A DNA stretch of 54,276 nucleotides from a virus. The notes under the pieces are model-generated. The model searched no databases and was not told where the DNA came from. It saw only the letters and a list, made by a program, of their open reading frames with translations. Shown piece by piece: positions 1-54,276 of this stretch. The position numbers and the translations under genes are program-made. How positions within the stretch are numbered: the stretch's first letter is position 1; each line of letters opens with the position of its first letter. The DNA lies in the IMG/VR virus record IMGVR_UViG_3300029720_000017; one strand, written 5' to 3'.

Positions 1-166
1 CCTTTCTTAACCGATAGTGTCCATATCCGCCTGATAGATGGTTTCCACAGCCTCGCCCAGCTGCTGCGTCAGGCTGTCTATCTCGTTGTTGGCTTCCTCC
101 AGTGCCGTCAGCACCTCTTTGCCGTCACGGTAGAACTTGCCCTCCGTGTACGTGTCACCCATGCCC
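1..166. repeat. terminal overlap copy 1, identical to 54111-54276
   Basis: The string cctttcttaaccgatagtgtccatatccgc... occurs at 1 and again at 54111, and identity runs to the window end. Confidence 0.95.
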
Positions 167-14540: not shown

Positions 14541-14553
14541 ATACTAATAGTAT
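14541..14553. promoter_or_regulatory. palindromic site ATACTAATAGTAT downstream of the 14566 promoter
   Basis: Same arms, with one change in the spacer. It lies between the -10 and the RBS of gene 14121-14522. Confidence 0.55.
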
Positions 14554-16029: not shown

Positions 16030-17634
16030 CTATTTTTGATTTTTGACCAAAATTTCCATAAACACACGAATTACAGAGTTTCTGTGACCATCGGACTCCT
16101 CAATCTTGTTTATACGCACCGTTGTACCGGCATTGAGTAACGTTTCACCCTCGCCTGTACCGAACTGAGAAATGGACATGATAGAGGACGCCTGTGTACC
16201 CTTGGGAGCATAGAAAACAATCTCGACATCCCCTCCAAACCCCTTATTCCAGTCAGAAGAGGTACTGGTAAATCCAGCATATTGGCCAACCTTGCCTTGA
16301 AACAGCTTGTTCAAAGACTTAACTGACATCCCTTCTAATATGCTCTTATTATCAAAAAAGTCTCCATCAAGAAAACCAGCCAAGTCTCCAAGGTCTGTAC
16401 CGCGACGCAGTATTAAATCCTTTTCCAAAGCAGCTTTCTTCAGTGCAGATTGACACCGCTGTATGTCACCAGCGTACCAATCACCATGCTTATTATCAGC
16501 AGCCTCTTTACCTCTCTTCGCAGCAGTACGCAGCCAACCATTCATCTCTTTATAGCTACTACCTGTGTATTCTCTCAAGGAAGCCTTTTCTGCCTCGGTA
16601 AATCTTTCAAAGGCCGACTCTTCCATTTCCAACATTCCCGACGTAGTTTGACGTTCAAACAGACTTATCCACTCCTTAGAGGAAGGAATTTTCTGTATGT
16701 TGGTACCGGACTGTACATTGTCCTTAACTTCGGAGGCGATACCGCCCATACCCTCAATCCACTTATCCAAAGACGGGTCAGCCTTACCTTCAACCCAGTC
16801 AGCCAACCGGTCTGCGATTTCAGTCATACTCTGCGGAATGTATGCCTCAAAGGTACACATGCCGTTAGGGTGGTCAAGAGGGAGACTATCTTTGGGAAAG
16901 TGTTTACCATCTCGCTCCATACATACTTCACAGGTACGATTGCCCCCCGCAGACAACCAGACGTAATCCTCAACGAAGGGATTGTTTTTGGTAGTTCGTA
17001 CAAAGGCTTGTTGATAGGCGTGAGACACCATTGTACGAGCCAACCGTTGAGCATTGTAGTCAACTCTCTTGGCCGCGCCGGGGTACACCTTAGACCAGTC
17101 CCAGTCTTTTCTTGCTTCAGGATTCAGGTACTTCTCCAAATCCTTGGCTATGTCATAGGCACTCTTATTCTCTGCGATACCTTGTGCTACAACTGCGTTT
17201 ATATTGTACTGAGTCTTCATGTGATTTTTCCACAGGGCACGGCTCAGGCTCCACTTCCCCTCGTAGAGCTGACCACTTGCTACCGACTTAACAATGTCAG
17301 CCGGAACAAAACTGTATGCACCTTTAATCCCAAGACCCAGTTTATCTACGAATTTACCATTGTCGTCTACCACGGCCTGAGCCGCTGACTTCATATTGCC
17401 CTCAATCTCGCCCTTGAGAGACATCTCTGCTTTCTTGAGCTCCTTCTCGAGCTCCTTCTGTAAGTTCTTCAAGTGTTCCTCGTACAGAGGGGCAGAGGGT
17501 GTCTTAGGCAGCGTTTTGGCCTTTTTAGCAACGGATTTCGCAGCATTCTTATAGATGTCTACGATGTGCTTCTGCTGCTCTTTTGTAAGCTTTACTCTCT
17601 CCAGCTCAGCTGTATTCAGGTTAAACGTTGCCAT
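16030..17634 (-). CDS. MuF/SPP1 gp7-like head morphogenesis protein fused to a C3-like ADP-ribosyltransferase domain
   Basis: MuF core: AQRLARTMV...NRTCEVCMERDGKHF...HPNGMC. The C-terminal domain has YTGSSYKEMNGWLR, LRRGT (R), FTSTS (STS) and GEGETLL (ExE). Confidence 0.8.
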   Translation of the reverse strand: MATFNLNTAELERVKLTKEQQKHIVDIYKNAAKSVAKKAKTLPKTPSAPLYEEHLKNLQKELEKELKKAEMSLKGEIEGNMKSAAQAVVDDNGKFVDKLGLGIKGAYSFVPADIVKSVASGQLYEGKWSLSRALWKNHMKTQYNINAVVAQGIAENKSAYDIAKDLEKYLNPEARKDWDWSKVYPGAAKRVDYNAQRLARTMVSHAYQQAFVRTTKNNPFVEDYVWLSAGGNRTCEVCMERDGKHFPKDSLPLDHPNGMCTFEAYIPQSMTEIADRLADWVEGKADPSLDKWIEGMGGIASEVKDNVQSGTNIQKIPSSKEWISLFERQTTSGMLEMEESAFERFTEAEKASLREYTGSSYKEMNGWLRTAAKRGKEAADNKHGDWYAGDIQRCQSALKKAALEKDLILRRGTDLGDLAGFLDGDFFDNKSILEGMSVKSLNKLFQGKVGQYAGFTSTSSDWNKGFGGDVEIVFYAPKGTQASSIMSISQFGTGEGETLLNAGTTVRINKIEESDGHRNSVIRVFMEILVKNQK

Positions 17635-17653: not shown

Positions 17654-19063
17654 TTAATTCTCACCCAACAACTTTTTCCAAGTTGCCTCGCCCACAATAC
17701 CGTCTACAGACAAACCAGCGTGGGACTGGAATGCCCTCACAGACGACTCCGTACCAGAACCAAACTCACCGTCAGCGCCATACCCGCCGCAGTTGTAGCC
17801 ATAACCCAGAAGCAGCGTCTGCAGGACAGCCACTTTACCGGCCTTGGCACCATTTTGGAGCTCAGGGAAACCGATAGTGACACAGTCCTTCTGCACCGGC
17901 TCAGGAGTGGGCTCAGGCTCAGGAACATAGGTCAGACCACAGAACTCACACAGAGCCTTGCAATCTGCCACCGCACATTCCTTCATGTGGAGATGGAACC
18001 ACTCTGCATCATCCACATTGTCATGGAATACGTGCTCCTGGTAGACTGCCCATGCCTTGGTATCCTCCAGCTCATGCAGGTCACCACGAACCGTAGTCTT
18101 GCAACCGTAGGGATAGAACTCCTTACGATACTTGACCATCAGCTCTGCCAGCTTCTTCCCGTTGGGACTGTCCGGATGGTACATGGAGGTGAAACCCTTG
18201 GCTTTGCCGCGACCAGTCGGTCCAGTGGTGCTTCCGTTGGTGTGGGATACATAGTGGATTTTCGCACCCCACTGATTGGACTCCTTGATGGCGCGGTACA
18301 TATACACCTCGCCGTCCTCATTGGACATAGGCGTCCGGCGCGGACCTCTCTTGGTGTCAAAGCCACAGCGCTCCAGCATGGGCTGCAAAATGTCCATGAA
18401 CTCGTTATTCTCCAACGTTTCATAGCACTGTTTACCATCAGGTCGAGCATAGCAGCACTCGTTCGCACGGTGATACGCAGGGCTGAGGTAAATCTTGGGC
18501 TTCTTTACCGGAGGCGTGGTATCGTCCTCAGTGTTCGTGTAGTCAGGGTATCCGAAGGTATACGTGGACTTGGTCGTGTACTCTTTCTCATACACGCCAC
18601 CGCCATTGGGAATGACACCGGCATCGGGATTGGTGTTACCCTCAATGGAACGGAACCTCTTTCCATTCACCCAAGAGACAATACCGGTATGGTCCTCACC
18701 GAAGAACACCTGAGCACCAACCTGAGGAGTGCTGCCGAGTCTACCAATAGCCTTGAAGAACCCCTTGGAGTACTTGCAGCCAGCACCAGTAGAGTCAGAG
18801 GGCTGATTCAACAGCCGCTTGGCTTCGTCTACTCCAAATGCCTGTACAAAGCACCAGTCTACAAAACAGTCACACCATGCATACCCCTGTTTCGGACCGT
18901 TGTAGAAGTGAGGGATGGCATCAAGGTCTCTGGCATACTTGGTGAAGTTCCTGTAACCAGCGTTGGCCGTCTTGCTATCAAGATACTTCGCCTCATCGGT
19001 GACTTTCTCCAGATAACCCAACTCGGCCTGAGCTATCTGGAGAACCTTTGCCGCGCTGCTCAT
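17654..19063 (-). CDS. three-domain endolysin: CHAP-like, MurNAc-L-Ala amidase-like and PG_binding_1
   Basis: The N-terminus GYAWCDCFVDW...HTGIV is CHAP-like. There is a central amidase-like region. The C-terminus GADGEFGSGTESSVRAFQSHAGLSVDGIVGEATWKKL is a peptidoglycan-binding repeat. The start overlaps the holin stop (ATGA). Confidence 0.8.
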   Translation of the reverse strand: MSSAAKVLQIAQAELGYLEKVTDEAKYLDSKTANAGYRNFTKYARDLDAIPHFYNGPKQGYAWCDCFVDWCFVQAFGVDEAKRLLNQPSDSTGAGCKYSKGFFKAIGRLGSTPQVGAQVFFGEDHTGIVSWVNGKRFRSIEGNTNPDAGVIPNGGGVYEKEYTTKSTYTFGYPDYTNTEDDTTPPVKKPKIYLSPAYHRANECCYARPDGKQCYETLENNEFMDILQPMLERCGFDTKRGPRRTPMSNEDGEVYMYRAIKESNQWGAKIHYVSHTNGSTTGPTGRGKAKGFTSMYHPDSPNGKKLAELMVKYRKEFYPYGCKTTVRGDLHELEDTKAWAVYQEHVFHDNVDDAEWFHLHMKECAVADCKALCEFCGLTYVPEPEPTPEPVQKDCVTIGFPELQNGAKAGKVAVLQTLLLGYGYNCGGYGADGEFGSGTESSVRAFQSHAGLSVDGIVGEATWKKLLGEN

Positions 19064-19275
19064 GCAGCCTCCTTAAGACCCTTGTTGTAGCTTGCGGAAC
19101 TGAACCCCAACACCGCGCCGAGGAACACCGTGATGCAGGAAATGGTGCTCACAATCTGCTCGGCATACGGCCAGCCCCAAACCCCGGCCAGACCGGAGTA
19201 CAGGGCGGAGATGGCGGGCAGGACGATAATCACCACCCACTTCAGGACGTCGTACATTTTGTTGCTCAACTTCAT
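19060..19275 (-). CDS. holin, Dp-1-like family
   Basis: From the second ATG (19275, 7 nt after AGGAG) the product starts MKLSNKMYDVLKWVVIIVLPAISALY, which resembles the pneumophage Dp-1 holin. Two TM segments. Confidence 0.7.
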   Translation of the reverse strand: MKLSNKMYDVLKWVVIIVLPAISALYSGLAGVWGWPYAEQIVSTISCITVFLGAVLGFSSASYNKGLKEAA

Positions 19276-24038: not shown

Positions 24039-24051
24039 ATACTAAAAGTAT
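24039..24051. promoter_or_regulatory. palindromic site ATACTAAAAGTAT in the terS leader
   Basis: Exact 5+3+5 palindrome about 40 nt downstream of the terS promoter -10. Confidence 0.6.
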
Positions 24052-24172: not shown

Positions 24173-24185
24173 ATACTAAAAGTAT
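24173..24185. promoter_or_regulatory. palindromic site ATACTAAAAGTAT upstream of the terS promoter
   Basis: Exact copy, with its centre 134 bp from the site at 24039-24051. Confidence 0.6.
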
Positions 24186-30188: not shown

Positions 30189-30374
30189 ATGAAGACAATG
30201 GTTGTATTCAGTAGAGAAGATTTTGAGGGCTTATCAGCTCTGCTTCAGAACGCTGTACATGATGCTGAAGTCCTTGAAAAGAACAACTCAAGTTACCTTA
30301 CCAGTAGACTGATAGACACTCTGCATAACGTACAACAATACTTGAAGGAGGACAACGACAATGGAGATGACTAA
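30189..30374 (+). CDS. hypothetical small protein
   Basis: GGAGG RBS, 61 aa. Confidence 0.5.
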   Translation: MKTMVVFSREDFEGLSALLQNAVHDAEVLEKNNSSYLTSRLIDTLHNVQQYLKEDNDNGDD

Positions 30375-30882
30375 GCGGATTGTAGAAATCATGAAGGTTC
30401 TTAGAAAACTCGGTATGCACGAAAATCTAATCGGGTTCCTCTATACTGTTACCGCCGTGGATGCCATACTCAATAGTGACCATGTGCTTCGGACCATGGA
30501 AATCTATGAAGCGGTAGAAGAGGCAGTTGGAATCCCTGCCAGCCGAGTGGAACGAAGCATTCGTCACTCGATAAAGACCCTATATGCAACCTCAAAGACA
30601 GTTCGGAATTCCCTAATCTTGGGGACGTCCTGTTGTTCATACAAGGACATCCCTTCCAATTCAACCTTCCTGTCTTCTGTAGCCAACTACATCCGTATGC
30701 AGGAGTATGAGGACACTAACAGAGTCACCTACTATTCCCGGCCTATAAACGCTGATGGAGACCCTGTATTTGCTCCTGACCTTGCGGAAAGGAAGTACGT
30801 AGCTGGATGGGGTGGTGGAGCGGAAACTGGTAGATACTGCCCCAATTTAACGGAGGTGATTACCCGTGATATAGAAGCCTGA
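30361..30882 (+). CDS. Spo0A C-terminal (DNA-binding) domain protein with no receiver domain
   Basis: LGMHENLIGFLYTVTAVDAIL...IYEAVEEAVGIPASRVERSIRHSIKTLY parallels Spo0A-C (HIKGYLYLREAI...ASRVERAIRHAIEVAW). It starts directly at that domain and has a ~60-aa unrelated C-terminal tail. Confidence 0.8.
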   Translation: MEMTKRIVEIMKVLRKLGMHENLIGFLYTVTAVDAILNSDHVLRTMEIYEAVEEAVGIPASRVERSIRHSIKTLYATSKTVRNSLILGTSCCSYKDIPSNSTFLSSVANYIRMQEYEDTNRVTYYSRPINADGDPVFAPDLAERKYVAGWGGGAETGRYCPNLTEVITRDIEA

Positions 30883-32475: not shown

Positions 32476-32505
32476 TACCTACAGATTGAGCGAGGAGGAT
32501 GAATA

Positions 32506-33102
32506 ATGGATTTTAACTTTGCTGTAAAGAACAGGAGTGAAGAGGAGCGTATACAGCTGCTTCAGAGCACCCTTGTGATGAGCGGAATCAGTCCTAAGAG
32601 CTTTCCTATGGATTGGCTTGCCAGTACTGACTACTTCCGTGCCCCGGCCTCTAAGAAGTTTCATGCAGCATACCCCGGAGGCCTGTATGAGCATAGTCTG
32701 AACGTCACCTATAAACTGCTCCAATTCACTGAAGCTGGTCTGTGTTCTCCGTGGGGACGGCCGGAAAGTCCTATCATTGTAGGTATGCTGCATGACGCAA
32801 CCAAGATTGGACGGTATGCAGAATTCAAAGAGGTCAACCCCGATACTGGAGAGATGGAGATTTTCTACAAGGACAATCCCGACTACGTAAACCTCGGCGG
32901 ACATGGAAATGACTCTGTTCTCAAGCTCAAGCAGGTCATGAGGCTCACGGAGGAAGAGGAGCTGTGTATCAGGTATCACATGGGTGCTTATGAGACCGAT
33001 GATTGGGACGGCTTTGACAAGGCCATCCGCAAGTTCCCGAACGTACTATTCACCCATACCGCTGACATGTATGCCTCCAAGTGCATGGAGGTGACTCCGT
33101 GA
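32506..33102 (+). CDS. HD-domain phosphohydrolase
   Basis: Contains KKFHAAYPGGLYEHSLNV and GMLHDATKIG (H...HD...D pattern). Confidence 0.7.
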   Translation: MDFNFAVKNRSEEERIQLLQSTLVMSGISPKSFPMDWLASTDYFRAPASKKFHAAYPGGLYEHSLNVTYKLLQFTEAGLCSPWGRPESPIIVGMLHDATKIGRYAEFKEVNPDTGEMEIFYKDNPDYVNLGGHGNDSVLKLKQVMRLTEEEELCIRYHMGAYETDDWDGFDKAIRKFPNVLFTHTADMYASKCMEVTP

Positions 33103-34133
33103 GGAACAAGCCGGGGGACATTCCCTACCTCGGCGTTCGCAAGGAGCTGGTACTGACGGCTGAGCCTACCTTAGATGAGGAAGTCCTGCTACACCTGTAT
33201 CGGTTCATCACTCGGCGGTATAAAGTCCATATCAAGAAGGACATCCAAGGTCTACCAGCTCCTTGGACAAAAGACCCGGTCATACAGAACTATCGGTTTA
33301 CCAATGTCAGACGGGAGCATGACAAGGAAACTCGTTGGCTGATACAAAATATCGTCAACAATCCAAACGTTACCTATGAGGACAAGCTCCTCAACTGCGT
33401 GCTTTTCCGACTCTACAATAAACATGAAACATCAGAGCTGCTATCTCAACCTATTCCCTTTACTCATATTATAGAGAAGAACGGTGTATGGGATCCGGAT
33501 TCCTATCGAGCACTCTTTGCCGCACAGGATTGCATATACCCTGAGCGAGTTTTCTTTACTGGAGTGTTCATGGTGAGTGGGTTGCTTCGTATCGCTAACC
33601 AGTACACTCCCGAAGGAACGGACGAAGAGGACACCAGAATGCGACCTCTGTGGCTTCTGAGACATCTGGTAGACCTGCACTTACCCGACCGGATAAAACG
33701 CTGCAAGACGGCTCGAGAGGTCTGCAGAGTCCTTTCTCGAATTGATGGTATTGGGGTGTTCCTTGGGTACCAGATGTTCGTGGATATGACCTACATACCG
33801 GAGTTCCCTTTCAGTGAGAACGAGTACGTAGTGGCTGGCCGTGGTTGTCAAAGGGGCTGCGAGTATCTGTTTGAAGACTCCGATGACATGACTTACGAAG
33901 AGTGTATCTTTTGGCTGCGAGACCATCTTGAGGACATCTTTGCCGAGCATACAAAGGGAAAATTTAGCTGCAAGACCCTGTTCCATGACCTCCCTCCTTA
34001 TGACCAGCAGTTCAATGTCATGAGCATAGAGAATTGTCTGTGCGAACTCAGTAAATACACCAGAGTTCTACGTAAAGAGGGAAGACCAAGAAAACGTTAT
34101 CAAGGAGGACAAGATGAAAAAGACAAGAAATGA
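33099..34133 (+). CDS. candidate DNA base-hypermodification enzyme (aGPT-pyrophosphorylase-like)
   Basis: GTG at 33099 lies 5 nt after GGAGGTG with a GTGA overlap. The motif PWTKDPVIQNYRFTNVRREHDKETRW matches my recollection of the alpha-glutamyl/putrescinyl-thymine pyrophosphorylase family signature. This assignment needs an HMM check. Confidence 0.5.
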   Translation: MRNKPGDIPYLGVRKELVLTAEPTLDEEVLLHLYRFITRRYKVHIKKDIQGLPAPWTKDPVIQNYRFTNVRREHDKETRWLIQNIVNNPNVTYEDKLLNCVLFRLYNKHETSELLSQPIPFTHIIEKNGVWDPDSYRALFAAQDCIYPERVFFTGVFMVSGLLRIANQYTPEGTDEEDTRMRPLWLLRHLVDLHLPDRIKRCKTAREVCRVLSRIDGIGVFLGYQMFVDMTYIPEFPFSENEYVVAGRGCQRGCEYLFEDSDDMTYEECIFWLRDHLEDIFAEHTKGKFSCKTLFHDLPPYDQQFNVMSIENCLCELSKYTRVLRKEGRPRKRYQGGQDEKDKK

Positions 34134-34716
34134 GCTGCGACGAGACCGGATTTATGACATCATCATAACCATTGTGATGGTACTGGTGCTCATTGCCGTG
34201 GGTATCCAAATCGGTGCTTGGATTGAAAATGCCAAGTATGAGCCCAAGGAGAGCAAACAGGTCTACTACGAAGCCAGTGATTGTGCCTTTGAGATGCCTG
34301 AAGACCCACTGGAGACTTATCTCATTGAACGAGCAATCATGGCCAAGCCTACTCCCGCTGTAATGGGTTATGACTATGATTATGTGTGTCGTGTTGTTAT
34401 GGCTGAGACCGGGGGCGAGTACAATGAAGACCTTACACTGGCAGTATGTCAGGCTATTGCCAATGCCGCTGTAGAAAACAACTGGACTCCCGAGGAAGTC
34501 TGTATCAAGTACAAGTACACCAGACCCCACGAGTATACCAGTGACTTCATTCAAAACATCTGTGACCGAGTGTTTATTCAGGGCGAAGTATATGAGGCCT
34601 CTGGAAATGCTCAGGTTTTCTACAATCCCAGTTATGGTCACAGCAGCTACCATGAGAGTCAGAGCTTTGTGTGTGAAATTGGTGGTGTTCGGTTCTTTGA
34701 GAGGGTGAGTGTATGA
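34114..34716 (+). CDS. membrane-anchored cell-wall hydrolase, SleB-like (Hydrolase_2)
   Basis: N-terminal TM segment IYDIIITIVMVLVLIAVGIQIGAW. The catalytic-domain motifs VCRVVMAETGGE, LAVCQAIANA, VFYNP and IGGVRFF parallel SleB C-terminal motifs. Confidence 0.65.
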   Translation: MKKTRNELRRDRIYDIIITIVMVLVLIAVGIQIGAWIENAKYEPKESKQVYYEASDCAFEMPEDPLETYLIERAIMAKPTPAVMGYDYDYVCRVVMAETGGEYNEDLTLAVCQAIANAAVENNWTPEEVCIKYKYTRPHEYTSDFIQNICDRVFIQGEVYEASGNAQVFYNPSYGHSSYHESQSFVCEIGGVRFFERVSV

Positions 34717-35531
34717 TACCTGTATTCGTACCTTCCTACAAGCGTCCCAAGGCTAAATTCCTTGTACGCGCCATGGAGCAGGAATTTCCTCTGTATGTCT
34801 TTGTGCGTAAAGAGGAGAGGGATGCCTACGCATGGATAAAGGAGCGCCCTGATACTACTCTGGTATTGCTGTCCAACGTTTCTAACATTGGTGAGACTCG
34901 CAGAGCCATGTTCCGCTATGCTGTACACCATCGGATACCTAAAATCATCATGGTGGACGATGACGTTACCCGTTTAGACTTGTCTATGGTTGACCCGGTA
35001 TCCGGAAGGGTAAAGGCTTCCGGCAATGTGACTGGTCATACTGAGAGCTGGAACAAGGTCATTACTCGGTTTGAAAATCTCTGGGGTAAACAGGCCATGT
35101 TCGGTGCCTCTTATAGACCCTTCAGTTGGTCTATGTCTGAGGAGGAAATTCTCAAGCTGAGTAGAGGTCAGCTTCAGCAGGTCGTTGGTATCAATGTCAA
35201 ACAGATTTACAAGGCTGGCCTGAATTATCAGAGCAATACAGTCGTTGGAAATGAAGACCTGTTCCTCCAGCTGGAGTGCTATCAGCAGGGATTGGAGTGT
35301 GTCAAAACCAATGCTATTCAGTATGACTGTCCCGCTATGGGTGCCGGAGAAGGAGGCTGTAATGCTTCGGAGCTCGGTTCTCTTGCAGAAAAGCAGAGAG
35401 TCAGGGTAGAGGCATTTCTCAAGGCATGTAATAATTCTCCCGCTGTACGAGTGGCTACTACCAGAAGCGGGATTGAGAGTATCAAGTTCAACTGGAAAGA
35501 GATAAACAAGATGATGGAGGGAGTACTATGA
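34713..35531 (+). CDS. GT-A-like glycosyltransferase (candidate DNA glycosyltransferase)
   Basis: MIPVFVPSYKRP at the N-terminus and IIMVDDDV (DxD-type). The genomic context is nucleotide-metabolism genes. Confidence 0.5.
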   Translation: MIPVFVPSYKRPKAKFLVRAMEQEFPLYVFVRKEERDAYAWIKERPDTTLVLLSNVSNIGETRRAMFRYAVHHRIPKIIMVDDDVTRLDLSMVDPVSGRVKASGNVTGHTESWNKVITRFENLWGKQAMFGASYRPFSWSMSEEEILKLSRGQLQQVVGINVKQIYKAGLNYQSNTVVGNEDLFLQLECYQQGLECVKTNAIQYDCPAMGAGEGGCNASELGSLAEKQRVRVEAFLKACNNSPAVRVATTRSGIESIKFNWKEINKMMEGVL

Positions 35532-36004
35532 ATACAAACAGTTGGTTGGATATGGCGGAGATGTACGCTCAGAAGAAGAGCGGTTGTAACAAAGTCGCCG
35601 TAGGTTGTGCCATTGTTAGTCCTGACCGGAGGCAGCTTTTGACTCTGGGAGCAAATCAGGCCATGCCTGACCTGTGCAAGTCGGAGCGTGGCTGTCTGCG
35701 GATGGAGCTCTATGGTGAAGACAGTAAAGCACACCGGAACTCTGGTGATTGCAGAGCCATTCACAGTGAGATTGATGCCATCTCTGGCGCGGCTGAGTGG
35801 GGTGTGTCTCTGCGTGGGGCTATTGCCTTTGTTACTCGGTATCCTTGCGAAAGTTGTGCCAAGGCACTGATTCGTGCCGGTATCAAGGAAGTCTACTATG
35901 GCGGGACTGCTACTGTGAGCGAATATACCAGATACCTGTTCGAGATGTACAAAGTCCGATGCTATCATATTACAGGCTGGCGTGAAGACCTGTCTGACCG
36001 ATAA
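35528..36004 (+). CDS. dCMP deaminase (ComEB/T4 cd-like)
   Basis: HSEIDAI (HxE) and YPCESCAKALIRAGIKEVYY (PCxxC) zinc-deaminase motifs. Confidence 0.8.
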   Translation: MNTNSWLDMAEMYAQKKSGCNKVAVGCAIVSPDRRQLLTLGANQAMPDLCKSERGCLRMELYGEDSKAHRNSGDCRAIHSEIDAISGAAEWGVSLRGAIAFVTRYPCESCAKALIRAGIKEVYYGGTATVSEYTRYLFEMYKVRCYHITGWREDLSDR

Positions 36005-43830: not shown

Positions 43831-44505
43831 ATGAGCAGAAGAATGAAAGTCGATATGACCGGTGTTGAGAGTTACTCTCGTTGCCCGGAGGGTCAGTTCC
43901 CCGCCAAGCTGGTCAAGCTGGAAGAATGCAGCATTCAGGGTTCTGGTGACGATGGTCTCAAGGCCAAGTTTAAAGTCACCAGTGGTTCTGGCAAGGGCAG
44001 TAACGTCTTTGAGACCTTCTCTCTGGCCGAAAAGGCTCTGTGGAAGCTGAAGATGATGCTGGAGGCCATGGGTATGAAGGCTGTCGGCAAGATGACCCTT
44101 GATTTGGACAAGCTGGAGGGCAAGTCCGTCGGTATCGAGGTCGTCCATGATGAGTACAATGGCCGTAAACAGGCCAAGATTGCTCAGTACCTCAAGCTGA
44201 GCGAGCTGGAGGATACTGAGGCCGATGAGGATGATGAGGACGATGACGATGAAGATGAGGATGAGGAGCCGGTGAAGAAGCCCGCCAAGAAAGCTCCCAC
44301 CAAGAAGTCCAAGAAGCAGCCCGAGCCTGAGGATGACGACGAGGACGAAGATGAGGATGACGATGATGAGGACGAGGAAGAGGAAAAGCCCGCCCCCAAG
44401 AAGTCCTCTAAGAAAGCTCCTGCCAAGGCTTCCAAAAAGACCAGCAAGAAGTCCAAAAAGGACGAAGACGATGACGAGGACGACTGGGAGGACGATGAGG
44501 ACTAA
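43831..44505 (+). CDS. DUF669-type (SSB-like) protein with a long polyampholyte tail
   Basis: ATG follows GGAGGT. The N-terminal ~120 aa are DUF669-like. The tail alternates D/E runs with KKPAKKAPTKKSKK blocks and ends DDWEDDED. Confidence 0.65.
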   Translation: MSRRMKVDMTGVESYSRCPEGQFPAKLVKLEECSIQGSGDDGLKAKFKVTSGSGKGSNVFETFSLAEKALWKLKMMLEAMGMKAVGKMTLDLDKLEGKSVGIEVVHDEYNGRKQAKIAQYLKLSELEDTEADEDDEDDDDEDEDEEPVKKPAKKAPTKKSKKQPEPEDDDEDEDEDDDDEDEEEEKPAPKKSSKKAPAKASKKTSKKSKKDEDDDEDDWEDDED

Positions 44506-44563
44506 TCCCATCTGACTTCTACCGGGGGAGGGGTGACCCTCCCCCAATACAAGGAGGAACACT

Positions 44564-44905
44564 ATGGACAAGATTACAATCCATTCCGAGCTTTGCACAG
44601 AGATGCATGCCCTGTACAAGCACAAAAATGCTGACTACGGAGATAGCTTTGCTCGGCTCCGAAAGCGTTACCCGAACTTTGTGTGTATGCGGCTGTTTGA
44701 CAAGCTCAACCGTCTGGACACCATCATCCAGCCGGGGTATGAGTGTAAGGTGTCTGACGAGAAAATTGAGGACACCCTGATGGATATCGCCAACTATGCT
44801 ATCATGGAGCTGACTGAGCGTAGAGCTGAACGCCCTTTCGCTGAAGAAGTGATGAGACGAGCTCGTAATAGCGAGCCTGTGGTCATCAAGAACACCGATA
44901 TCTGA
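44564..44905 (+). CDS. DUF1599 / nucleotide-modification-associated domain 1 protein
   Basis: KHKNADYGDSF....MRLFDKLNRL is the DUF1599 pattern. It lies directly upstream of the ThyA homologue. Confidence 0.65.
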   Translation: MDKITIHSELCTEMHALYKHKNADYGDSFARLRKRYPNFVCMRLFDKLNRLDTIIQPGYECKVSDEKIEDTLMDIANYAIMELTERRAERPFAEEVMRRARNSEPVVIKNTDI

Positions 44906-44918
44906 TAGGAGGAAAATC

Positions 44919-45635
44919 ATGGCTGTAACTGTATTCAATGCAAAAACCGTAAACGAGGCTTGGGAACAGGCTTTCGAGGCTCTGAAGGCTCAGGCCAATG
45001 AGGGCTTCAATGATACCTCTCGCGATGGAGGGGTTGTGGGTGAGATTACCGATGCAGTCTTCTGCATTGAAGACCCCACTCGCAACATCGTGACCAGTCC
45101 CATTCGCAAGATGCCTATGCGCTATGCCGTGGGCGAGCTTGCATGGTATCTATCTGGCTCCAACAAGGCTTCCGACATCGGTCGCTTTGCTAAGAAGTGG
45201 CTGGAAATTTCTGACGACGGCGAGACCAACAACTCCGCGTATGGTTATCGTATTTTCACAAAGTTCGGCTTTGACCAGTGGAAGCACGTCAAGAACATGC
45301 TGCAGAAAGACCCCAACTCCCGTCAGGCAGTTATCCACATCAAGGACGCTGATAACAAACTTACCAAGGATACCCCATGCACGGTCTATCTGCAGTTCTT
45401 CATTCGGAATGGCAAGCTGAATCTCTCTGTTCACATGCGCTCCAATGACATCTGGATGGGTGTACCCTATGACATGTTCAGTTTCTGTTTCCTGCAGATG
45501 AAGATGGCTATGGAGCTGGGGGTTGAGATTGGTGAGTATCATCATTATGCCGGTTCTTTGCACATGTATGCTCGGGACTGGGAAGCCGCCAAGAAGAACA
45601 TGGGTGAGGTCTGCTGTACTGAGCTGAAGAGGTGA
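44919..45635 (+). CDS. thymidylate-synthase-fold pyrimidine C5 transferase, probably dCMP-specific (hydroxymethylase or methylase)
   Basis: PCTVYLQFFIRNGKLNLSVHMRSNDIWMGVPYDMFSF aligns residue by residue with E. coli ThyA [37 protein letters not shown]. An Asp replaces the specificity-determining Asn. Confidence 0.75.
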   Translation: MAVTVFNAKTVNEAWEQAFEALKAQANEGFNDTSRDGGVVGEITDAVFCIEDPTRNIVTSPIRKMPMRYAVGELAWYLSGSNKASDIGRFAKKWLEISDDGETNNSAYGYRIFTKFGFDQWKHVKNMLQKDPNSRQAVIHIKDADNKLTKDTPCTVYLQFFIRNGKLNLSVHMRSNDIWMGVPYDMFSFCFLQMKMAMELGVEIGEYHHYAGSLHMYARDWEAAKKNMGEVCCTELKR

Positions 45636-45639
45636 CCTG

Positions 45640-46014
45640 ATGTCATACAACAGGATTACCAAGGGACCAGAGCTCATTAAAGTGATGGTCAAAATCCTTG
45701 ACGAGAACAAGGACATACTGGTATGGGACCATTTCTGTTACGCGCCCAAAGACCTGTACCTCAAGTTCTTGGAAAACCGGGGCATTGAGCGATTCGAGAT
45801 GGCAGAGTACCTCCAGCGTTGGTGCCTGTTGGACTTCAACTGTGATTTGCCTATGACCAGAGCGCAAGACATAACCGTGCTCAAGGAACTGATACTGGAC
45901 AAGTACTCCAAAATCTTCCCTTACCTGTCTCGTCCGAGCAAGACAGACCGGCAAGGGTGGATTAGAGTGTGGCTGTCCGAACACATGGAAAGAGAAATGA
46001 GGAAAAAGAAATGA
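45640..46014 (+). CDS. hypothetical protein
   Basis: GAGGTGA RBS, 124 aa, no motif I can name. Confidence 0.55.
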   Translation: MSYNRITKGPELIKVMVKILDENKDILVWDHFCYAPKDLYLKFLENRGIERFEMAEYLQRWCLLDFNCDLPMTRAQDITVLKELILDKYSKIFPYLSRPSKTDRQGWIRVWLSEHMEREMRKKK

Positions 46015-49784: not shown

Positions 49785-49810
49785 ACTCCCCCACCACACG
49801 GCGGGGGAGT
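49785..49810. terminator. bidirectional terminator between the convergent blocks
   Basis: Stem actccccc/gggggagt (8 bp). T-rich on both strands after the stem. Confidence 0.65.
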
Positions 49811-49950: not shown

Positions 49951-50556
49951 TCAGCACAGAATCTTTCCTACATCCTTGCACTTTTCCTCATACCTCTCAT
50001 GATATTCTTCCTGAAGCATACCAACGTAACCGAAGTCATAGTCAGCAGCTTTCAGTTCAATGCAGAGTCGTTCCAGATACTTCAGCTCCAAGTCCACGTC
50101 GCACACGAGGCAATTGATTTCGTTGAAGTCGGCTACACAACCCCAGTCAAGCAGCATTCTCGCGCTTTTCTCATACAGGGCTTTGGTATCCGTCTCCCAC
50201 TCCTTGTACTGCTCCATGGCTCTCTGCACGGCCTGTTTCCTCACCGCAGGGGTGACGGCCATACGATTGTACTGGTACCAGTCATAGGGGATGATGTCAA
50301 CTGGCTCCACGTCCTCGTTGGGAAGCAGCATGCCATGATGGTTGATGTAGTACCGCTTGAGTTTGCGGTGCATACAGGACTCCTCCAGATACTGGTACTC
50401 GTGCATCCGTTTGAAGCCTCTCAGACCAAGAAAATCGAAGAGGTCAGCCATGTCGTTGTGGAACATGAGAGCTAAGACCTGACGGGAGTTTACCGCAGTG
50501 AACAGTTCTTTGACATCCTTGGGACTGTACTCTGCAATAGACAGTTTTCCGTTCAT
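49951..50556 (-). CDS. ferritin-like four-helix-bundle protein
   Basis: ALMFHNDMADLFDFLGLRGFKRMHEYQYLEESCMHRKLKRYYI resembles ferritin helix A/B (..GF....Q..EE..H..K). AGGAGG RBS. Confidence 0.45.
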   Translation of the reverse strand: MNGKLSIAEYSPKDVKELFTAVNSRQVLALMFHNDMADLFDFLGLRGFKRMHEYQYLEESCMHRKLKRYYINHHGMLLPNEDVEPVDIIPYDWYQYNRMAVTPAVRKQAVQRAMEQYKEWETDTKALYEKSARMLLDWGCVADFNEINCLVCDVDLELKYLERLCIELKAADYDFGYVGMLQEEYHERYEEKCKDVGKILC

Positions 50557-50753
50557 ACTTGTCCTCCTTCCAGCTTGCTGAGCAGCAGGTCAATCTTCTC
50601 ATCTTGAATGGAAAGGTGTTTATGGATGTCGTCAACCGCAGCTTGGACGGCCTTACTCATCGTACTTTGGTCAACGTTTTCACCATAGTTGGCTACACCA
50701 ATTAGAAACGAGATGATTGCCAGTGCATCAAGCAAAGTCAACTGTTCTTTCAT
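50553..50753 (-). CDS. small protein with an N-terminal hydrophobic helix plus coiled-coil
   Basis: ATGA coupling at both ends. Sequence LLDALAIISFLIGVANY, then a helical region. Confidence 0.5.
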   Translation of the reverse strand: MKEQLTLLDALAIISFLIGVANYGENVDQSTMSKAVQAAVDDIHKHLSIQDEKIDLLLSKLEGGQV

Positions 50754-51178
50754 TCCTTGACCACTTCCATAGCGACGTTCATGGTGTTGACGGTCTGGCT
50801 GTTTACATAGATGCTCAGGATACTTTCACCCTGACCGCAGAATACACGTACCGGGGCTGTGAAGCCGAAGTTGACGATACCGTTCTCAGCCGCAGAAGAG
50901 GTCTGAACTGCACCGGGCACCAAGTTACCATCCTGATACAGAGAGACAGTAATCTGACCTTCAGCAGAAGCTGTCAGAGTCGCGTTAACGCTCACGGTGT
51001 AGTAACCAGCAGCCCTCTCGTTGCTGTCGCAGCAACCCGCATTCTTCAGCACGACCGTGTTGTTTCTCAGCCGAATGCAGCGTCCAAACTGACGAGTAGT
51101 GTTGGTCAGAGGCAGGATGTTACCCGCCTGAACTTCTTGTACACCTGTAAAAGTGTAGTAACCGAGAGATTTAGCCAT
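50750..51178 (-). CDS. C1q/TNF-like (BclA C-terminal-domain-like) jelly-roll protein
   Basis: Pattern AGNILPLTNTTRQFG.CIRL..NTVVLKNAG.YTVSVNATL...ITVSLYQDGNLVPGA...ILSIYV resembles BclA-CTD-type beta sandwiches. No collagen repeats. Strong RBS. Confidence 0.4.
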   Translation of the reverse strand: MAKSLGYYTFTGVQEVQAGNILPLTNTTRQFGRCIRLRNNTVVLKNAGCCDSNERAAGYYTVSVNATLTASAEGQITVSLYQDGNLVPGAVQTSSAAENGIVNFGFTAPVRVFCGQGESILSIYVNSQTVNTMNVAMEVVKE

Positions 51179-51206
51179 TGTATTGTACCTCCTTTATAAT
51201 GAAATA

Positions 51207-51232
51207 GGCGGGGCAGCTATTGCCACCCCGCC
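51207..51232 (-). terminator. hairpin (attenuator or terminator) inside the six-gene module
   Basis: Stem ggcgggg/ccccgcc. On the minus strand it is followed by tatttcatt. Confidence 0.5.
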
Positions 51233-51271
51233 AGAGTTCCTCGCCAAACAGGGCGTATTAACAGGATTTAC

Positions 51272-51934
51272 TTAGACCGCGGGAGAATACGAACAACCAC
51301 AGGTGTTGGCCGTATAGGGAGAGCAGGTGATGTACGCAGGACGCGCTACCGGCTGAAGCCGGTTGACCAGATACATGTTCTGGAGCAGCTGGCTGTTCTC
51401 GAACTTACTGTCCTGCAGCTTGTCACGCAGCTCCTGGATGGTGTTAGCGGTCATCATAGCGCGGGTCGCATCACCATCAGCCTTGATTGCATTGACGATG
51501 TCACAGGTGTTGCGAGCGTTCTCGTACTTGACGGAGTCAATGTTACGATTGGTCTCGCAGCAGCAGCTCTGCTGAGCGAACCGATTGTCAGAGAAGCCCT
51601 GAGCAATCTGGCTCTGCAGACTGTTCATGCCCTGAAGCATGGTAGTGTTCATGGCGTAGAAGCCATCACACAGACCATTGGACAGGCCACGTACACCGTT
51701 CTGCAGGTCGTTGAAGTTGAAGTCCTGGCACAAGTCAGCTCTGGTCAGAGCACCCTGAGCAGCCGCGCCGTTGCCGAAGCCGAAGCCACCGCCACCCCAC
51801 GCCAGCAGGAAGAACAGGAAGAAGACCCACACCCAAGTGCCACCGGCACCTCCAAACATGCTACCGTCGGTGTTGCGATTCTGGAGAGCCATGACATCAG
51901 CCACGGACATCCCACTACCAGTTTCCATACCCAT
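51272..51934 (-). CDS. membrane protein with a Gly-flanked TM segment and conserved Cys motifs
   Basis: Contains GGAGGTWVWVFFLFFLLAWGGGGFGFG (YjcZ-like), then LCQDFNFNDL, LCDGFYAMN, SCCCETN and a C-terminal CSPYTANTCGC. Confidence 0.6.
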   Translation of the reverse strand: MGMETGSGMSVADVMALQNRNTDGSMFGGAGGTWVWVFFLFFLLAWGGGGFGFGNGAAAQGALTRADLCQDFNFNDLQNGVRGLSNGLCDGFYAMNTTMLQGMNSLQSQIAQGFSDNRFAQQSCCCETNRNIDSVKYENARNTCDIVNAIKADGDATRAMMTANTIQELRDKLQDSKFENSQLLQNMYLVNRLQPVARPAYITCSPYTANTCGCSYSPAV

Positions 51935-51963
51935 TGTAGATACCTCCTTGTTAAAATTTTATC

Positions 51964-52179
51964 TCAACCCAGCGGGAACTGGGATTGAAACTGAGCCCAC
52001 ATCTGGTCAAAGTCCAGACCTCTCTGCTTACAGAGATTCATACAGGTCTGCTTGAGCTGCTCCGGGGATTTACCCTGAGCCATCTGCTGTGCCTGACGGA
52101 ACATAGGATTAGAGCCAAACTGCTTGGACATAAAGGACATGGGATTCATCATAGCACCCATCATCTGGAACGGATTCAC
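51964..52179 (-). CDS. small Met/Gln-rich protein
   Basis: GTG start 8 nt after AGGAGGG, with a GTGA overlap. Sequence MNPFQMMGAMMNPMSFMSKQFG... Confidence 0.5.
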   Translation of the reverse strand: MNPFQMMGAMMNPMSFMSKQFGSNPMFRQAQQMAQGKSPEQLKQTCMNLCKQRGLDFDQMWAQFQSQFPLG

Positions 52180-52643
52180 TGTTTATTCCCTCCTTTCAGC
52201 TTCTGCTCAATCTTAGAGAGCTTTTCCGTCAGCCCCTGTACCGCTGCATTAAAGTCCTCCTCCCGGACGTATCCTGACAGGTCAACGGTCTGCGGAGAGG
52301 CCTCGACGGGCTTTGCTACCGGGGTGTCTACACTGTACCGCTGGAAGATGATGTTGCCATCAAGACCGAGCTGCTTAGTGTAGATTTTGCCATGCGCCTT
52401 GTCAGGGAACACAAACAGAGACCCATCGAAGTCAATCATGGCGGCATTGGCCTCCTCCTCGTTGGATACCGGTCTACCCTTGAGGATAGGAGCCGCAGGG
52501 GTCTGAGGCTGCTGAGGCGGTTGCTGAGGGAAACTGTTACCCATCTGAGGGTACTGAGCCTCCATCATCTGAAGCCTCTGCTGAGCGCTTTGCATGGCCG
52601 GATTGTTGTACGGATAGGGAGTCATAGGTGCCATAGGATACAT
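52176..52643 (-). CDS. Pro/Gln-rich protein, hypothetical
   Basis: AGGAGGT RBS. The N-terminal P/Q/M-rich ~55 aa are followed by a globular part and a C-terminal coiled-coil. First gene of the six-gene module. Confidence 0.6.
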   Translation of the reverse strand: MYPMAPMTPYPYNNPAMQSAQQRLQMMEAQYPQMGNSFPQQPPQQPQTPAAPILKGRPVSNEEEANAAMIDFDGSLFVFPDKAHGKIYTKQLGLDGNIIFQRYSVDTPVAKPVEASPQTVDLSGYVREEDFNAAVQGLTEKLSKIEQKLKGGNKQ

Positions 52644-52677
52644 AGAAATTACCTCCTGTCTGGTATATTCTACCTCT

Positions 52678-52740
52678 ATTATACCTCGTCTGAATTGGCA
52701 GGAGTATACTAAAAGTATTCGTCAAGAATACTAAAAGTAT
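52678..52740 (-). promoter_or_regulatory. promoter lacking a -35 (TATAAT only), with two ATACTAAAAGTAT palindromes upstream
   Basis: attata at 52678-52683. At the -35 position the sequence reads TACTCC. Palindrome cores lie at 52706-52718 and 52728-52740. Confidence 0.55.
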
Positions 52741-52751
52741 AATTTTGGGCA

Positions 52752-52785
52752 TAAAAAGAACACCACCCTGTATAGAGTGGTGTTC
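52752..52785 (-). terminator. intrinsic terminator after the sigma-like gene
   Basis: Stem gaacaccac/gtggtgttc (9 bp) followed on the minus strand by TTTTTAT. Confidence 0.7.
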
Positions 52786-52790
52786 CTTAT

Positions 52791-53021
52791 TTAGAAAAGT
52801 TTGGACAGCTTGGAGAGAGCTTTGACGTGTCTTTTCTTGATTGTGATTTCCGCATATCCAAGTGTATCACCGATGTAGCGGAAGTCCTTGCCTTTGAGGT
52901 AGTGGAGCCTCAATATCTCCTTGTCCTCATCCGATAGGGTGGATTCGTTCAACAGGTCATCGAAGCGTCTCACACTTGGGATAGCCTCAAGGCGTTTCCT
53001 TGTATCAAGGTGAGTGCTCAA
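52791..53021 (-). CDS. sigma-70 region-4-like HTH protein (76 aa), candidate transcription regulator
   Basis: TTG start 6 nt after AAGGGGTG. LSDEDKEILRLHYLKGKDFRYIGDTLGYAEITIKKRHVKALSKL is a region 4.2-type HTH. Confidence 0.65.
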   Translation of the reverse strand: MSTHLDTRKRLEAIPSVRRFDDLLNESTLSDEDKEILRLHYLKGKDFRYIGDTLGYAEITIKKRHVKALSKLSKLF

Positions 53022-53103: not shown

Positions 53104-53520
53104 TTACCCGAGGGACTCGACTTCGTCACTGAGGCTCCCTTGCTCGGGCTGTATGTTCTGGTTCTCGTTGTTGTCACTGTTATGGTCTGCTTCGCCATAG
53201 TTTACCTCCTCAGAATTGCCTTGGACGTATTTGGCACTCTCACCAGATTGGAAAACGTTGTTACCGCTACCCTCTCCGGTGTCTTGCTCAACTGTCGTTG
53301 TAACCGTTTCAGTTGTGGTCATGTTCTTCTCGTACTGCACAAATATGATGCAGATAACGAGGTTGACCAGTATACTGACGATGAGAATCAACCGCAGCCA
53401 GAAGTCCTCGCGCCGCTTTGATTCCAGCATGGTCATCACGATGTGGTTGAGAGCTATGCTTTGGTCAAGGGCGTCTTCTTCAGTCTTCATGGTTTCCAAG
53501 TCCTGGATAGGAATGTCCAT
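53104..53520 (-). CDS. XhlA-like membrane protein with a long hydrophilic tail
   Basis: ATG at 53520 lies 9 nt after AGGAG. A helical N-terminus is followed by FWLRLILIVSILVNLVICIIF, comparable to XhlA ..W.LRLI.. plus TM. Confidence 0.45.
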   Translation of the reverse strand: MDIPIQDLETMKTEEDALDQSIALNHIVMTMLESKRREDFWLRLILIVSILVNLVICIIFVQYEKNMTTTETVTTTVEQDTGEGSGNNVFQSGESAKYVQGNSEEVNYGEADHNSDNNENQNIQPEQGSLSDEVESLG

Positions 53521-53833
53521 GCATTTCAACTCCTGTCTGTTTGATATAGTTCAGAATCTCAATGAGTACATCGTGCGTATTGTTGAGGTCACTGAGATTG
53601 TGGAACAGCGTTTTAATCTGCTCTTCATGAGAGTTGACCAAAAGGGCGAGGCTCTGCTGGCTGTTCTTTATCTCTTTGACATCGGTTTTCAACTCTGCAA
53701 TACCGGCTACTGCTTGATTGAGCTTTTGTACGACCTCGCCGTCGGCTTTGGCACGGCTGTTCATACCCACAACAAAGGTTGCAATACCAATCACACAGGC
53801 AATGATACTACAGATGAACAAAGTTGTCTCCAT
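53480..53833 (-). CDS. N-terminally anchored coiled-coil protein with an XhlA-like motif
   Basis: TM segment LFICSIIACVIGIATFVVG, then ELKTDVKEIKNSQQSL (compare XhlA ELKNDVKEIKDDL). AAAGGAGGA RBS. Confidence 0.45.
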   Translation of the reverse strand: METTLFICSIIACVIGIATFVVGMNSRAKADGEVVQKLNQAVAGIAELKTDVKEIKNSQQSLALLVNSHEEQIKTLFHNLSDLNNTHDVLIEILNYIKQTGVEMHGHSYPGLGNHED

Positions 53834-54110: not shown

Positions 54111-54276
54111 CCTTTCTTAACCGATAGTGTCCATATCCGCCTGATAGATGGTTTCCACAGCCTCGCCCAGCTGCTGCGTCAGGCTGTCTATCTCGTTGTT
54201 GGCTTCCTCCAGTGCCGTCAGCACCTCTTTGCCGTCACGGTAGAACTTGCCCTCCGTGTACGTGTCACCCATGCCC
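54111..54276. repeat. terminal overlap copy 2, identical to 1-166
   Basis: Same as copy 1. It duplicates the 3' 160 nt of the CDS at 7-273. Confidence 0.95.

Follow-up and report, generated by a model that had tools for sequence, protein, structure and literature searches.

An accessory gene cassette in phages of gut bacteria with a core protein related to the ends of tail fibres

What do six adjacent phage genes do when none of their products matches a protein of assigned function? This question is raised by a stretch of 54,276 nucleotides from the virus record IMGVR_UViG_3300029720_000017 (IMG/VR), which was analyzed at its full length and is called the window here. On its minus strand lie six genes, W1 to W6, which the original prediction, made from the letters alone, had described as an undescribed module and, from the composition of the products, had compared with components of the spore coat and exosporium. 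In our analysis, these genes appeared to be an autonomous accessory block carried by many unrelated phages of gut bacteria, not only by phages of spore-formers. Our best reading is that of a tail-fibre-tip or adhesin cassette whose anchor and helpers are unusual. The view that the module had not been described before was upheld, as all PHROG matches carried the label 'unknown function' and Pfam and NCBIfam were essentially empty. No assigned function was found for any component in Pfam, NCBIfam, PHROGs, PADLOC or the literature searched. PADLOC gave no membership for any of the six proteins; its only match, W3 to ZorA2 at 15.5 bits (E=0.0016), was of a coiled-coil type.

Organization and distribution of the cassette

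Loci were gathered from IMG/VR (80), from genomes and metagenome-assembled genomes (MAGs; 70) and from several cultured phages, and 156 of them held W3. The neighbouring genes of these 156 loci were clustered without preset families, and their positions were recorded relative to W3. This revealed a recurrent order on one strand, W1-W2-W3-(W4 or W4b)-(DUF7841, W5-W6 or rubrerythrin-like), which the window follows as W1-W2-W3-W4-W5-W6 (Table 1). The survey of co-occurrence that had been proposed with the original prediction thus found W3 together with W4 in 100 of the 156 loci and together with W6 in 40. Each of the six has homologues at dozens to more than 100 independent loci, with the gene order preserved, and W1 to W6 are therefore considered real genes and not chance open reading frames. 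Comparison by hhalign of W1, W2, W4, W4b, W5, W6, the DUF7841 and rubrerythrin-like proteins and three families of coliphage neighbours gave less than 7% probability for all pairs, and W4 and W4b, as well as the alternative downstream proteins, are therefore not detectably homologous to each other.

W3 had 5,120 relatives in a 90% cluster database and formed 1,999 clusters at 50% identity (E<=1e-3). The host bins of the cassette were Oscillospiraceae (the closest, 79%), Lachnospiraceae, Negativicutes, Gastranaerophilales, Treponema, Bacteroidales and Mycoplasmatota, and the long cassette-bearing contigs included a 545-kb contig of Phascolarctobacterium and a 2.5-Mb contig of Dialister. The long contigs and the coliphages described below suffice to show that the W3 family is not tied to spore-formers. 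The cassette was usually located downstream of very large tail or fibre genes, sometimes with lysis genes between. In the Clostridium perfringens phages HMD-PC1, PMQ04 and their relatives, the block was found between anti-repressor and Gam/Erf genes. W1 to W5, also carried by 17DYC, were missing from phiCP39-O, 13O, 34O and 26F, relatives with ~95%-identical flanks in which only the W6 homologue was kept, indicating that W1 to W5 are accessory and dispensable for virions in this phage lineage. The portability of the block across phage types and host phyla would fit a generic anchor, for example the lipid bilayer, better than a specific docking site on the virion.

The six open reading frames were all recovered between the two terminators that had been predicted to bracket them, and both terminators were confirmed. 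The upstream terminator has a 9-bp GC-rich stem; it was read directly in the sequence and was missed by a simple scan. A hairpin followed by a T-run was present at the equivalent place in the spacers between the regulator gene, Sig, and W1 in many related loci. The downstream terminator had been called bidirectional, which is plausible because its hairpin lies between convergent genes, although it was scored on the minus strand only. Translational coupling had been claimed for all six genes. It held for W1/W2, W4/W5 and W5/W6, each pair overlapping by 4 nucleotides (nt), and did not hold for W2-W3 and W3-W4, which are separated by 29 and 93 nt, respectively. The hairpin predicted within the W3-W4 gap was recovered by the scan and is possibly an attenuator or an RNA-stability element. 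The Cys content was 2.57% in the cassette and 1.75% elsewhere, a modest enrichment that is no argument alone.

An activator-type promoter had been predicted ahead of W1, and the two exact copies of a 13-bp palindrome, ATACTTTTAGTAT, upstream of a TATAAT box support it. The palindrome (ATACT-N3-AGTAT) had six matches in the window against 1.03 expected, and none of 100 shuffles reached six. Related (T/G)ATAC(T/A)TT repeats were observed between the terminator and the -10 element in many related loci, in which the recurrent layout was regulator gene, terminator, paired repeats, -10 and W1. Because the same palindrome also stands before the structural operons, the cassette is probably expressed late. 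We infer that it is an independent transcription unit of a late regulon, which the palindromes probably mark. The 76-amino-acid (aa) protein Sig would be the obvious candidate for the palindrome-binding protein; it matched Pfam Sigma70_r4 (E=2e-8, above the family cut-off) and PHROG phrog_36 (transcriptional regulator, E=3e-10).

Table 1. Features of the cassette, its control region and its alternative partners. Coordinates are those of the window; loci are counted among the 156 that hold W3.
Feature	Coordinates	Strand	Loci	Position relative to W3	Description or support
W1	52176-52643	minus	130/156	-2	155 aa, P/Q-rich
W2	51964-52179	minus	78, and 12 with a variant	-1	71 aa, Met/Gln-rich
W3	51272-51934	minus			220 aa, core protein
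W4	50750-51178	minus	100/156	+1	142 aa, BclA-C/C1q/TNF-like head
W4b			38/156	+1	Unrelated Cys-rich beta protein replacing W4
W5	50553-50753	minus	37/156	usually +2	66 aa, N-terminal hydrophobic helix and coiled coil
W6	49951-50556	minus	40/156	usually +3	201 aa, divergent ferritin-like protein, putatively four-helix
DUF7841 protein			63/156	usually +2	Pfam support
Rubrerythrin-family protein			10/156	+2	~100 aa; Pfam support
Sig	52791-53021	minus	85/156	-3	76-aa sigma-70 region-4-like regulator directly upstream of the cassette; Pfam and PHROG
Terminator after regulator gene	52752-52785	minus			Rho-independent; GAACACCAC-loop-GTGGTGTTC then TTTTT
Two palindromes, putative activator sites	52706-52718 and 52728-52740 (52706-52740)	minus			Exact copies of ATACTTTTAGTAT, 22 bp start to start
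Putative promoter core	52667-52694	minus			TATAAT at 52678-52683, poor -35; consensus matching only
W3-W4 intergenic hairpin	51207-51232	minus			GC-rich; scan: 11-bp stem, 9 GC pairs
Exchange block	50737-51323	minus			Last 17 W3 codons, hairpin, all of W4, first W5 codons
Cassette-closing terminator	49785-49810	minus			11-bp stem, 8 GC pairs, then T-run; scan
Palindrome copies upstream of packaging/head/tail operon	24039-24051 and 24173-24185				Motif count
Fifth palindrome copy, ahead of capsid block	14541-14553				Motif count

W3, its tail-fibre relatives and its partner proteins

W3 consists of an acidic N-terminal tail of ~30 aa, a hydrophobic anchor flanked by Gly and Trp, a helical region in which a CCC motif is invariant, a long helix predicted at 142-190 and a C-terminal tail rich in Pro and Cys, and it matched phrog_16490 (E=1e-26). 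The compositions and the W3 motifs quoted in the original prediction (GGAGGTWVWVFFLFFLLAWGGGGFGFG, LCQDFNFNDL, LCDGFY, SCCCETN and CSPYTANTCGC) were all found. The invariant columns of a cross-phylum alignment included C124-C126; the CCC itself was present in 151 of 159 W3 homologues, and a hydrophobic 15-mer before it in 142. The hydrophobic anchor that had been predicted is thus borne out, and in the family it carries Trp belts and Gly-rich flanks.

Relatives of W3 belonging to PHROG 9288 were found in 173 phage records from enterobacterial and related Gram-negative hosts, including Drexlerviridae, Seuratvirus-type phages, Salmonella phages of 110 kb, and Yersinia phages. The W3 search also matched Edwardsiella phage eiAU. 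In all five Gram-negative loci examined in detail (T1-like, Seuratvirus and eiAU), the W3-like gene directly followed a tail-fibre or tail-protein gene, and in BubbaBully the lateral fibre encoded before it ends in a Peptidase_S74 intramolecular chaperone. Seuratvirus KurtStettler encodes a single protein, bas22_0024 (L094 3966-5498), with a coiled coil, a beta domain, S74 (208-259), a Gly-zipper stretch and a CCCET domain; its record labels it 'putative lateral tail fiber chaperone'. The phrog_9288 proteins of these coliphage lateral tail-fibre loci (Drexlerviridae, Seuratvirus and eiAU; bas08_0030, bas22_0024) share the W3 core, which comprises a hydrophobic stretch rich in Gly, CCCET and the helix after it. 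The loci differ from the cassette in lacking W1, W2, W4, W5 and W6 and in having a much less hydrophobic Gly-rich stretch. Their downstream genes encode a MazG-like pyrophosphatase and proteins of ~170 aa and ~85 aa, which showed no profile similarity to the window proteins.

A fusion to a fibre shaft was observed in P0417 (557 aa), in which an N-terminal beta-rich region and a long, Ala/Glu-rich, coiled-coil-like shaft are followed by the W3 C-domain, without a hydrophobic segment. Downstream of its gene come a truncated W4b and a gene for a DUF7841 protein, and the locus has neither W1 nor W2. P0417 and bas22_0024 combine the W3 C-domain and a W3-like domain, respectively, with a clear fibre architecture. 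Because it is elsewhere the C-terminus of fibre proteins, the W3 C-domain is regarded as a tail-fibre end module. The P0417 locus further implies that, whether on a fibre shaft or on an anchor, the W3 C-domain moves together with W4 or W4b and with DUF7841, and that W1 and W2 accompany the anchor. Homology to phage structural families, which the original prediction had set against its own proposal, was therefore half found, namely in the fusion of the W3 C-domain to tail-fibre proteins.

MYRF is a eukaryotic membrane-bound transcription factor whose cleavage domain is thought to be derived from phage tailspikes. As a side result, the S74-then-anchor order of the Seuratvirus protein (fibre part, S74, Gly-zipper, W3-like domain) proved to be the same domain order as that of MYRF (DNA-binding part, ICA, transmembrane segment and luminal domain; PMC3742443). 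By analogy, this order suggests that trimerisation-driven cleavage may free the N-terminal part from the anchor. The window W3 differs in having no S74 and an N-terminal tail of only 30 aa, and the coliphage stretch is a putative membrane-inserting segment.

W4 had been predicted to be a C1q/TNF-like jelly-roll protein, and profile searches agreed. Its match to Pfam BclA_C (PF18573) reached 18 bits (E=0.0028), below the gathering cut-off of 38 bits. The best match of the W4 family profile in the PDB was 9H38 (E=2.8e-5 over 97 profile positions), in an alignment that includes the G-x-Y core motif; this structure is the C-terminal head of F-BclA (F-ENA paper, PMC12357932). Weaker profile matches were obtained with a phage tail protein (9occ_G, E=0.037), an exosporium protein, TNF and C1q. 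W4 is also similar in length to the BclA/F-BclA head (142 aa and a 148-aa chain), but it is a stand-alone protein encoded by phages, including those of non-spore-formers. Neither an exosporium leader nor a collagen-like GXY stalk was found in W4, and no GXY repeats were found in any other cassette gene. W4b has an N-terminal CxxC, and its profile gave a marginal match to a Gram-positive pilin-like protein in the PDB (E=0.004).

A phage represented by locus L007 was 94-97% identical to the window over the regulator, W1, W2, W3, W5 and W6. DNA identity between the two was 97% down to position 51323, absent across the exchange block and 93.6% from position 50737. The W3 proteins were 96% identical and diverged only in the tail, whereas the W4 proteins were 37% identical over 41 aa. 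The only other replaced stretch in the ~9.4 kb shared with L007 was the distal tail-gene block. Among relatives with W3 69-80% identical, W4 was ~27-40% identical and the other proteins mostly 50-87%. W4 therefore behaves as an exchangeable specificity element, and the joint replacement suggests that the W3 tail may be the docking site of W4.

The remaining proteins of the cassette were compared in the same databases. W1 has a disordered P/Q/M/Y-rich N-terminus, a small alpha/beta domain (55-104) and a C-terminal helix (128-151). Its AlphaFold2 (AF2) model was moderate (mean predicted local distance difference test score, pLDDT, of 67); Foldseek found nothing below E=0.07 in the PDB and 27 look-alikes in BFVD, all of them uncharacterised phage proteins. 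W2 contains NPxxM repeats, is rich in Met and Gln and has a small helical C-terminal part. Per-member Pfam scans of W2 gave weak, scattered matches, with SurA_N in 3 of 35 members. An STI1/SGTA-type chaperone was considered for W2 and rejected, as only 2 of the 35 members touched STI1-HOP_DP (E ~0.02), which is a hint only. W5 has the hydrophobic helix and coiled coil that had been predicted, with a Kyte-Doolittle mean of 1.83 over the 19 residues at 5-23.

The ferritin-like nature of W6, also predicted, was supported by its profile, whose top matches in the PDB were archaeal ferritins (5LS9, 3KX9 and 1S3Q; helices A-B, E=2e-4). A second stretch over the helix C-D region aligned non-significantly, the single sequence gave E=0.0015, and no ferritin match was obtained in Pfam. 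The di-iron (ferroxidase) ligand set was incomplete: E59, E121 and E157 align with ligands, but the helix-A Glu and the helix-B His lack conservation, and His33 is invariant instead. W6 further differs from ferritins in its greater length (201 aa) and in giving way, in other cassettes, to DUF7841 or to a rubrerythrin-family protein of 100 aa. The phiCP39-O protein gp45 (L167 1368-1895; record note 'contains ferritin domain') is a W6 homologue encoded without W1 to W5. Since it stands alone in phiCP39-O-like C. perfringens phages, W6 is separable and may have a function of its own. The DUF7841 profile found nothing in the PDB, and the literature searched contained no paper on DUF7841.

Possible roles of the cassette

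We tentatively favour, with less than even confidence, the reading that the cassette is an autonomous, accessory and late unit whose product is a membrane-anchored binding complex derived from a fibre tip, the head of which can be exchanged. W3 would trimerise, with its CCC motif stapling the trimer, and would be located not in the virion but in the infected cell, in its cytoplasmic membrane. A W4 trimer would dock on the W3 tail and provide variable binding specificity. W1 and the Met-rich W2, both absent where a fibre shaft carries the W3 C-domain, may handle the hydrophobic anchor. W5 and W6, in whose place DUF7841 or rubrerythrin-like proteins are found elsewhere, may be replaceable helpers, like the assembly factors encoded after fibre genes. 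As to purpose, we speculate that a cell-bound copy of the fibre tip could bind a variable ligand of the envelope or of a competitor phage at the end of infection, and could protect the progeny by receptor masking or an exclusion-type mechanism.

A membrane complex is favoured over a virion side fibre because the hydrophobic anchor is the norm in the family and because phages that differ widely in build and host phylum share the N-terminal parts. It is also favoured because the block moves between genome sites and is dispensable, and because the Seuratvirus W3-like domain stands behind a self-cleaving chaperone. A working analogy is offered by Llp of T5 and Cor of T1 and phi80, which are envelope-located phage proteins encoded beside host-recognition genes, with a specificity that tracks the receptor. 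Llp and Cor are small lipoproteins, and they differ from the cassette in having no sequence or architectural similarity to it.

Several points weigh against this proposal. No experiment or proteome in the literature searched places any cassette protein, and the TLS paper resolved only seven virion bands. The adjacency to tail genes, the co-regulation with structural genes and the fibre fusions would equally fit a part of the virion. In the positive-inside analysis, the charges flanking the W3 anchor did not fix its topology. The AF2 model of W3, made from a 40-sequence alignment, was unusable (pLDDT 41), so that the trimer, stalk and docking of W3 are all inference; AF2 failed because the alignment lacked diversity, as both homologue searches gave only relatives of at least 63% identity. 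W4 and W4b have no signal peptide, and an external W3 C-domain could therefore meet them only after holin action, while a W3 C-domain facing the cytoplasm would leave the ligand unclear. W6 may not belong functionally to the cassette. In addition, MAG binning of (short) phage contigs is unreliable, so that the evidence for a broad range of hosts comes chiefly from the long contigs and the cultured coliphages.

Somewhat doubtful, although it is the alternative that survives best, is the view that the cassette encodes a part of the virion, namely an accessory side fibre or decoration. W3 would then be a short trimeric stalk on the tail or head, W1 an adaptor, W4 an exchangeable receptor-binding head, and W2, W5 and W6 assembly chaperones, with the hydrophobic segment buried or used for membrane penetration on infection. 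The usual position after giant tail or fibre genes and the late palindrome common to the cassette and the structural operons fit this view. So do the genuine fibre proteins that have the W3 C-domain as their end, and the naming of a coliphage relative after the lateral tail fibre by the BASEL annotators. Against it, the C. perfringens phages carry the block amid early genes, and relatives that are 95% identical lack it. It is also opposed by the Seuratvirus W3-like domain: Peptidase_S74 is a self-cleaving chaperone, and the domain downstream of it should be cut off the mature fibre. The fold of W4 is used by the tips of exosporium fibres and weakly matches a phage tail protein, the near-identical phage with a replaced W4 also has its distal tail genes replaced, and all partners are without export signals, as are virion proteins. 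About 90% of the W3 homologues, on the other hand, have a strongly hydrophobic, Trp-belted segment, which to our knowledge is atypical for external fibre proteins, and the same N-terminal parts of W1 to W3 recur across very different architectures and phyla with no common docking partner evident.

A further possibility, which we regard as unlikely, is a membrane-acting, trimeric, Cys-knotted spike, composed of W3, with a fusion-peptide-like, Gly/Trp-rich N-terminus, and a separately encoded, exchangeable receptor-binding head (W4 or W4b), and kept in solution by W2 as a Met-rich chaperone. It would parallel, by analogy, the transmembrane/surface subunit (TM/SU) pair of enveloped-virus spikes or a receptor-directed bacteriocin. 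Its targets could be the membranes of other cells after lysis, or that of the producer, as a MYRF-like platform releasing fibre parts.

The cassette might also be an accessory of lysis or egress, that is, a membrane complex acting with holin and endolysin as a spanin-like or antiholin-like element or as a wall tether, with W4 reading variable wall polymers in the manner of the binding domains of endolysins. We consider this quite improbable. Several relatives have an Amidase_2 endolysin and small membrane proteins just upstream, the window has two more membrane proteins before the regulator gene, and expression is probably late; however, a Dp-1-type holin and a CHAP endolysin are already present elsewhere in this phage, which also rules out a canonical lysis cassette. 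I-spanins and T4 holin T have an N-terminal anchor, a helical ectodomain and conserved Cys, and W3 is built in a similar way. The two-component spanins of lambda, Rz/Rz1, share with W3 the N-terminal anchor and the helical Cys-containing domain, and are likewise late and located near lysis genes. The cassette differs from them in having no lipoprotein partner: no lipobox protein was found in it, and no holin or spanin family match was obtained in Pfam, NCBIfam or PHROGs. It also occurs in phages of monoderm hosts, in which spanins would have no outer-membrane target. T1-like phages that carry the W3-like gene have a holin, an endolysin and a unimolecular spanin of their own, as reported in the TLS paper.

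We consider it very unlikely that chaperoned W3-W4 trimers are freed at lysis, bind cells through W4 and attack their membranes by inserting the Gly/aromatic peptide, with W5 as a small immunity-type membrane protein. The W3 anchor is rich in Gly and Trp and has no positive charges at its flanks, in which it resembles fusion peptides and glycine-zipper toxins; the comparison is purely analogical, and no similarity to toxin, colicin or fusion-protein families was found in Pfam, NCBIfam, PHROGs or PADLOC. The Met-rich W2 could keep the anchor soluble, as the weak SurA_N and STI1 matches hint, and W4 would provide an exchangeable binding head. A small hydrophobic protein is encoded adjacent, but W5 was present in only 37 of the 156 loci, and a virulent phage would have no obvious gain from such a spike.

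The spore-coat or exosporium-like assembly tied to host sporulation, as first proposed, is hardly credible. In its favour, W4 has its greatest similarity to the head of an exosporium fibre, the cassettes include ferritin-like or rubrerythrin-like partners, the phage has RemA-like and Spo0A_C genes and the closest genome bin is Oscillospiraceae. The reading is largely refuted by the occurrence of the cassette on contigs of non-spore-forming lineages and of W3 relatives in enterobacterial phages. The apparent co-regulation with virion genes and the lack of any YjcZ, CotJ, exosporium-leader or collagen-repeat feature also speak against it. The suggested YjcZ-like W3 and CotJC-like W6 gave no match to NCBIfam or Pfam models at E<=1. 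A lysogenic-conversion moron was ruled out, as no integrase was seen in the annotated parts of the window and the late promoter motif is common to virion genes.

Genome context and significance

The two ends of the window (1-166 and 54111-54276) are the same 166 nt, which indicates that the phage genome is complete at ~54.1 kb and either circularly closed or terminally redundant. Proteins of the window recur with identical sequence on a 54,095-bp ENA scaffold. The small gene at 54117-54272 belongs to a longer open reading frame, of which it forms the tail end and which runs on from the window start to ~283. The late operon on the minus strand contains packaging genes, terminase and portal, then a Dp-1-type holin and a CHAP/PG_binding_1 endolysin, and then head genes, tape measure, Dit, a Gp37-like protein and a Gly_rich_2 fibre. 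Beyond the circular junction, two small genes, two membrane proteins, Sig and the cassette follow. The two membrane proteins upstream of Sig (53104-53529 and 53480-53833; 141 and 117 aa) have one transmembrane helix each and a coiled coil or acidic tail. They were found with the cassette in 24-37 loci, and in relatives they come after an Amidase_2 endolysin; they may be holin-type or lysis-accessory proteins. In locus L048 (2815-3654 and 7707-8717) and in the L052/L053 group, contigs of 92-125 kb, a sialic-acid-type synthase of the NeuB family and a NAGPA phosphodiester glycosidase flank the cassette, which hints at glycan chemistry near it.

The lysis pair (Dp-1-type holin and CHAP and PG_binding_1 endolysin) occupies 17654-19063 and a 71-aa gene just upstream of it (~19060-19275, minus strand). 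It lies between the portal gene and a Mu-F-like head gene, an unusual place for a lysis cassette. The Mu-F-like minor head protein carries an ADPrib_exo_Tox domain, and an ADP-ribosylglycohydrolase is encoded nearby; the two genes lie at 16030-17634 and 14653-15486. This ADP-ribosyltransferase toxin domain and the ADP-ribosylglycohydrolase may be an injected effector and its antidote.

The early genes on the plus strand include those for a RemA-like protein, a Spo0A_C protein, a thymidine-hypermodification set, a primase, PolA and an SNF2 helicase. Homologues of RemA, Spo0A-C and SleB had been predicted in this phage. The first two are present, and the supposed SleB is the CHAP and PG_binding_1 endolysin beside the Dp-1-type holin. 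The gene for the Spo0A C-terminal domain (30361-30882) and the RemA-like gene (~81 aa, near 28000) are early genes that are not linked to the cassette, and they suggest interference with host sporulation or biofilm regulation. The thymidine-hypermodification genes (plus strand, ~32500-36000 and 44500-45700) encode 5-hmdU DNA kinase domains, TAGT, a dCMP deaminase and a thymidylate-synthase-like protein, and the phage DNA is therefore probably hypermodified.

The family of the core protein comprises ~2,000 clusters at 50% identity, and the cassette recurs in phages assigned to several bacterial phyla, yet no part of it has an assigned function in the libraries and papers searched. The swapping of the block between near-identical phages is the behaviour expected of a determinant of host range or exclusion, and such a specificity element bears on gut-phage ecology and phage engineering. 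Because the core protein is linked to the gene that follows the lateral fibre gene in coliphages of the BASEL collection, T1-like as well as Seuratvirus, it can be studied in Escherichia coli. The cultured C. perfringens phages that differ in the presence of W1 to W5 provide a second tractable route.

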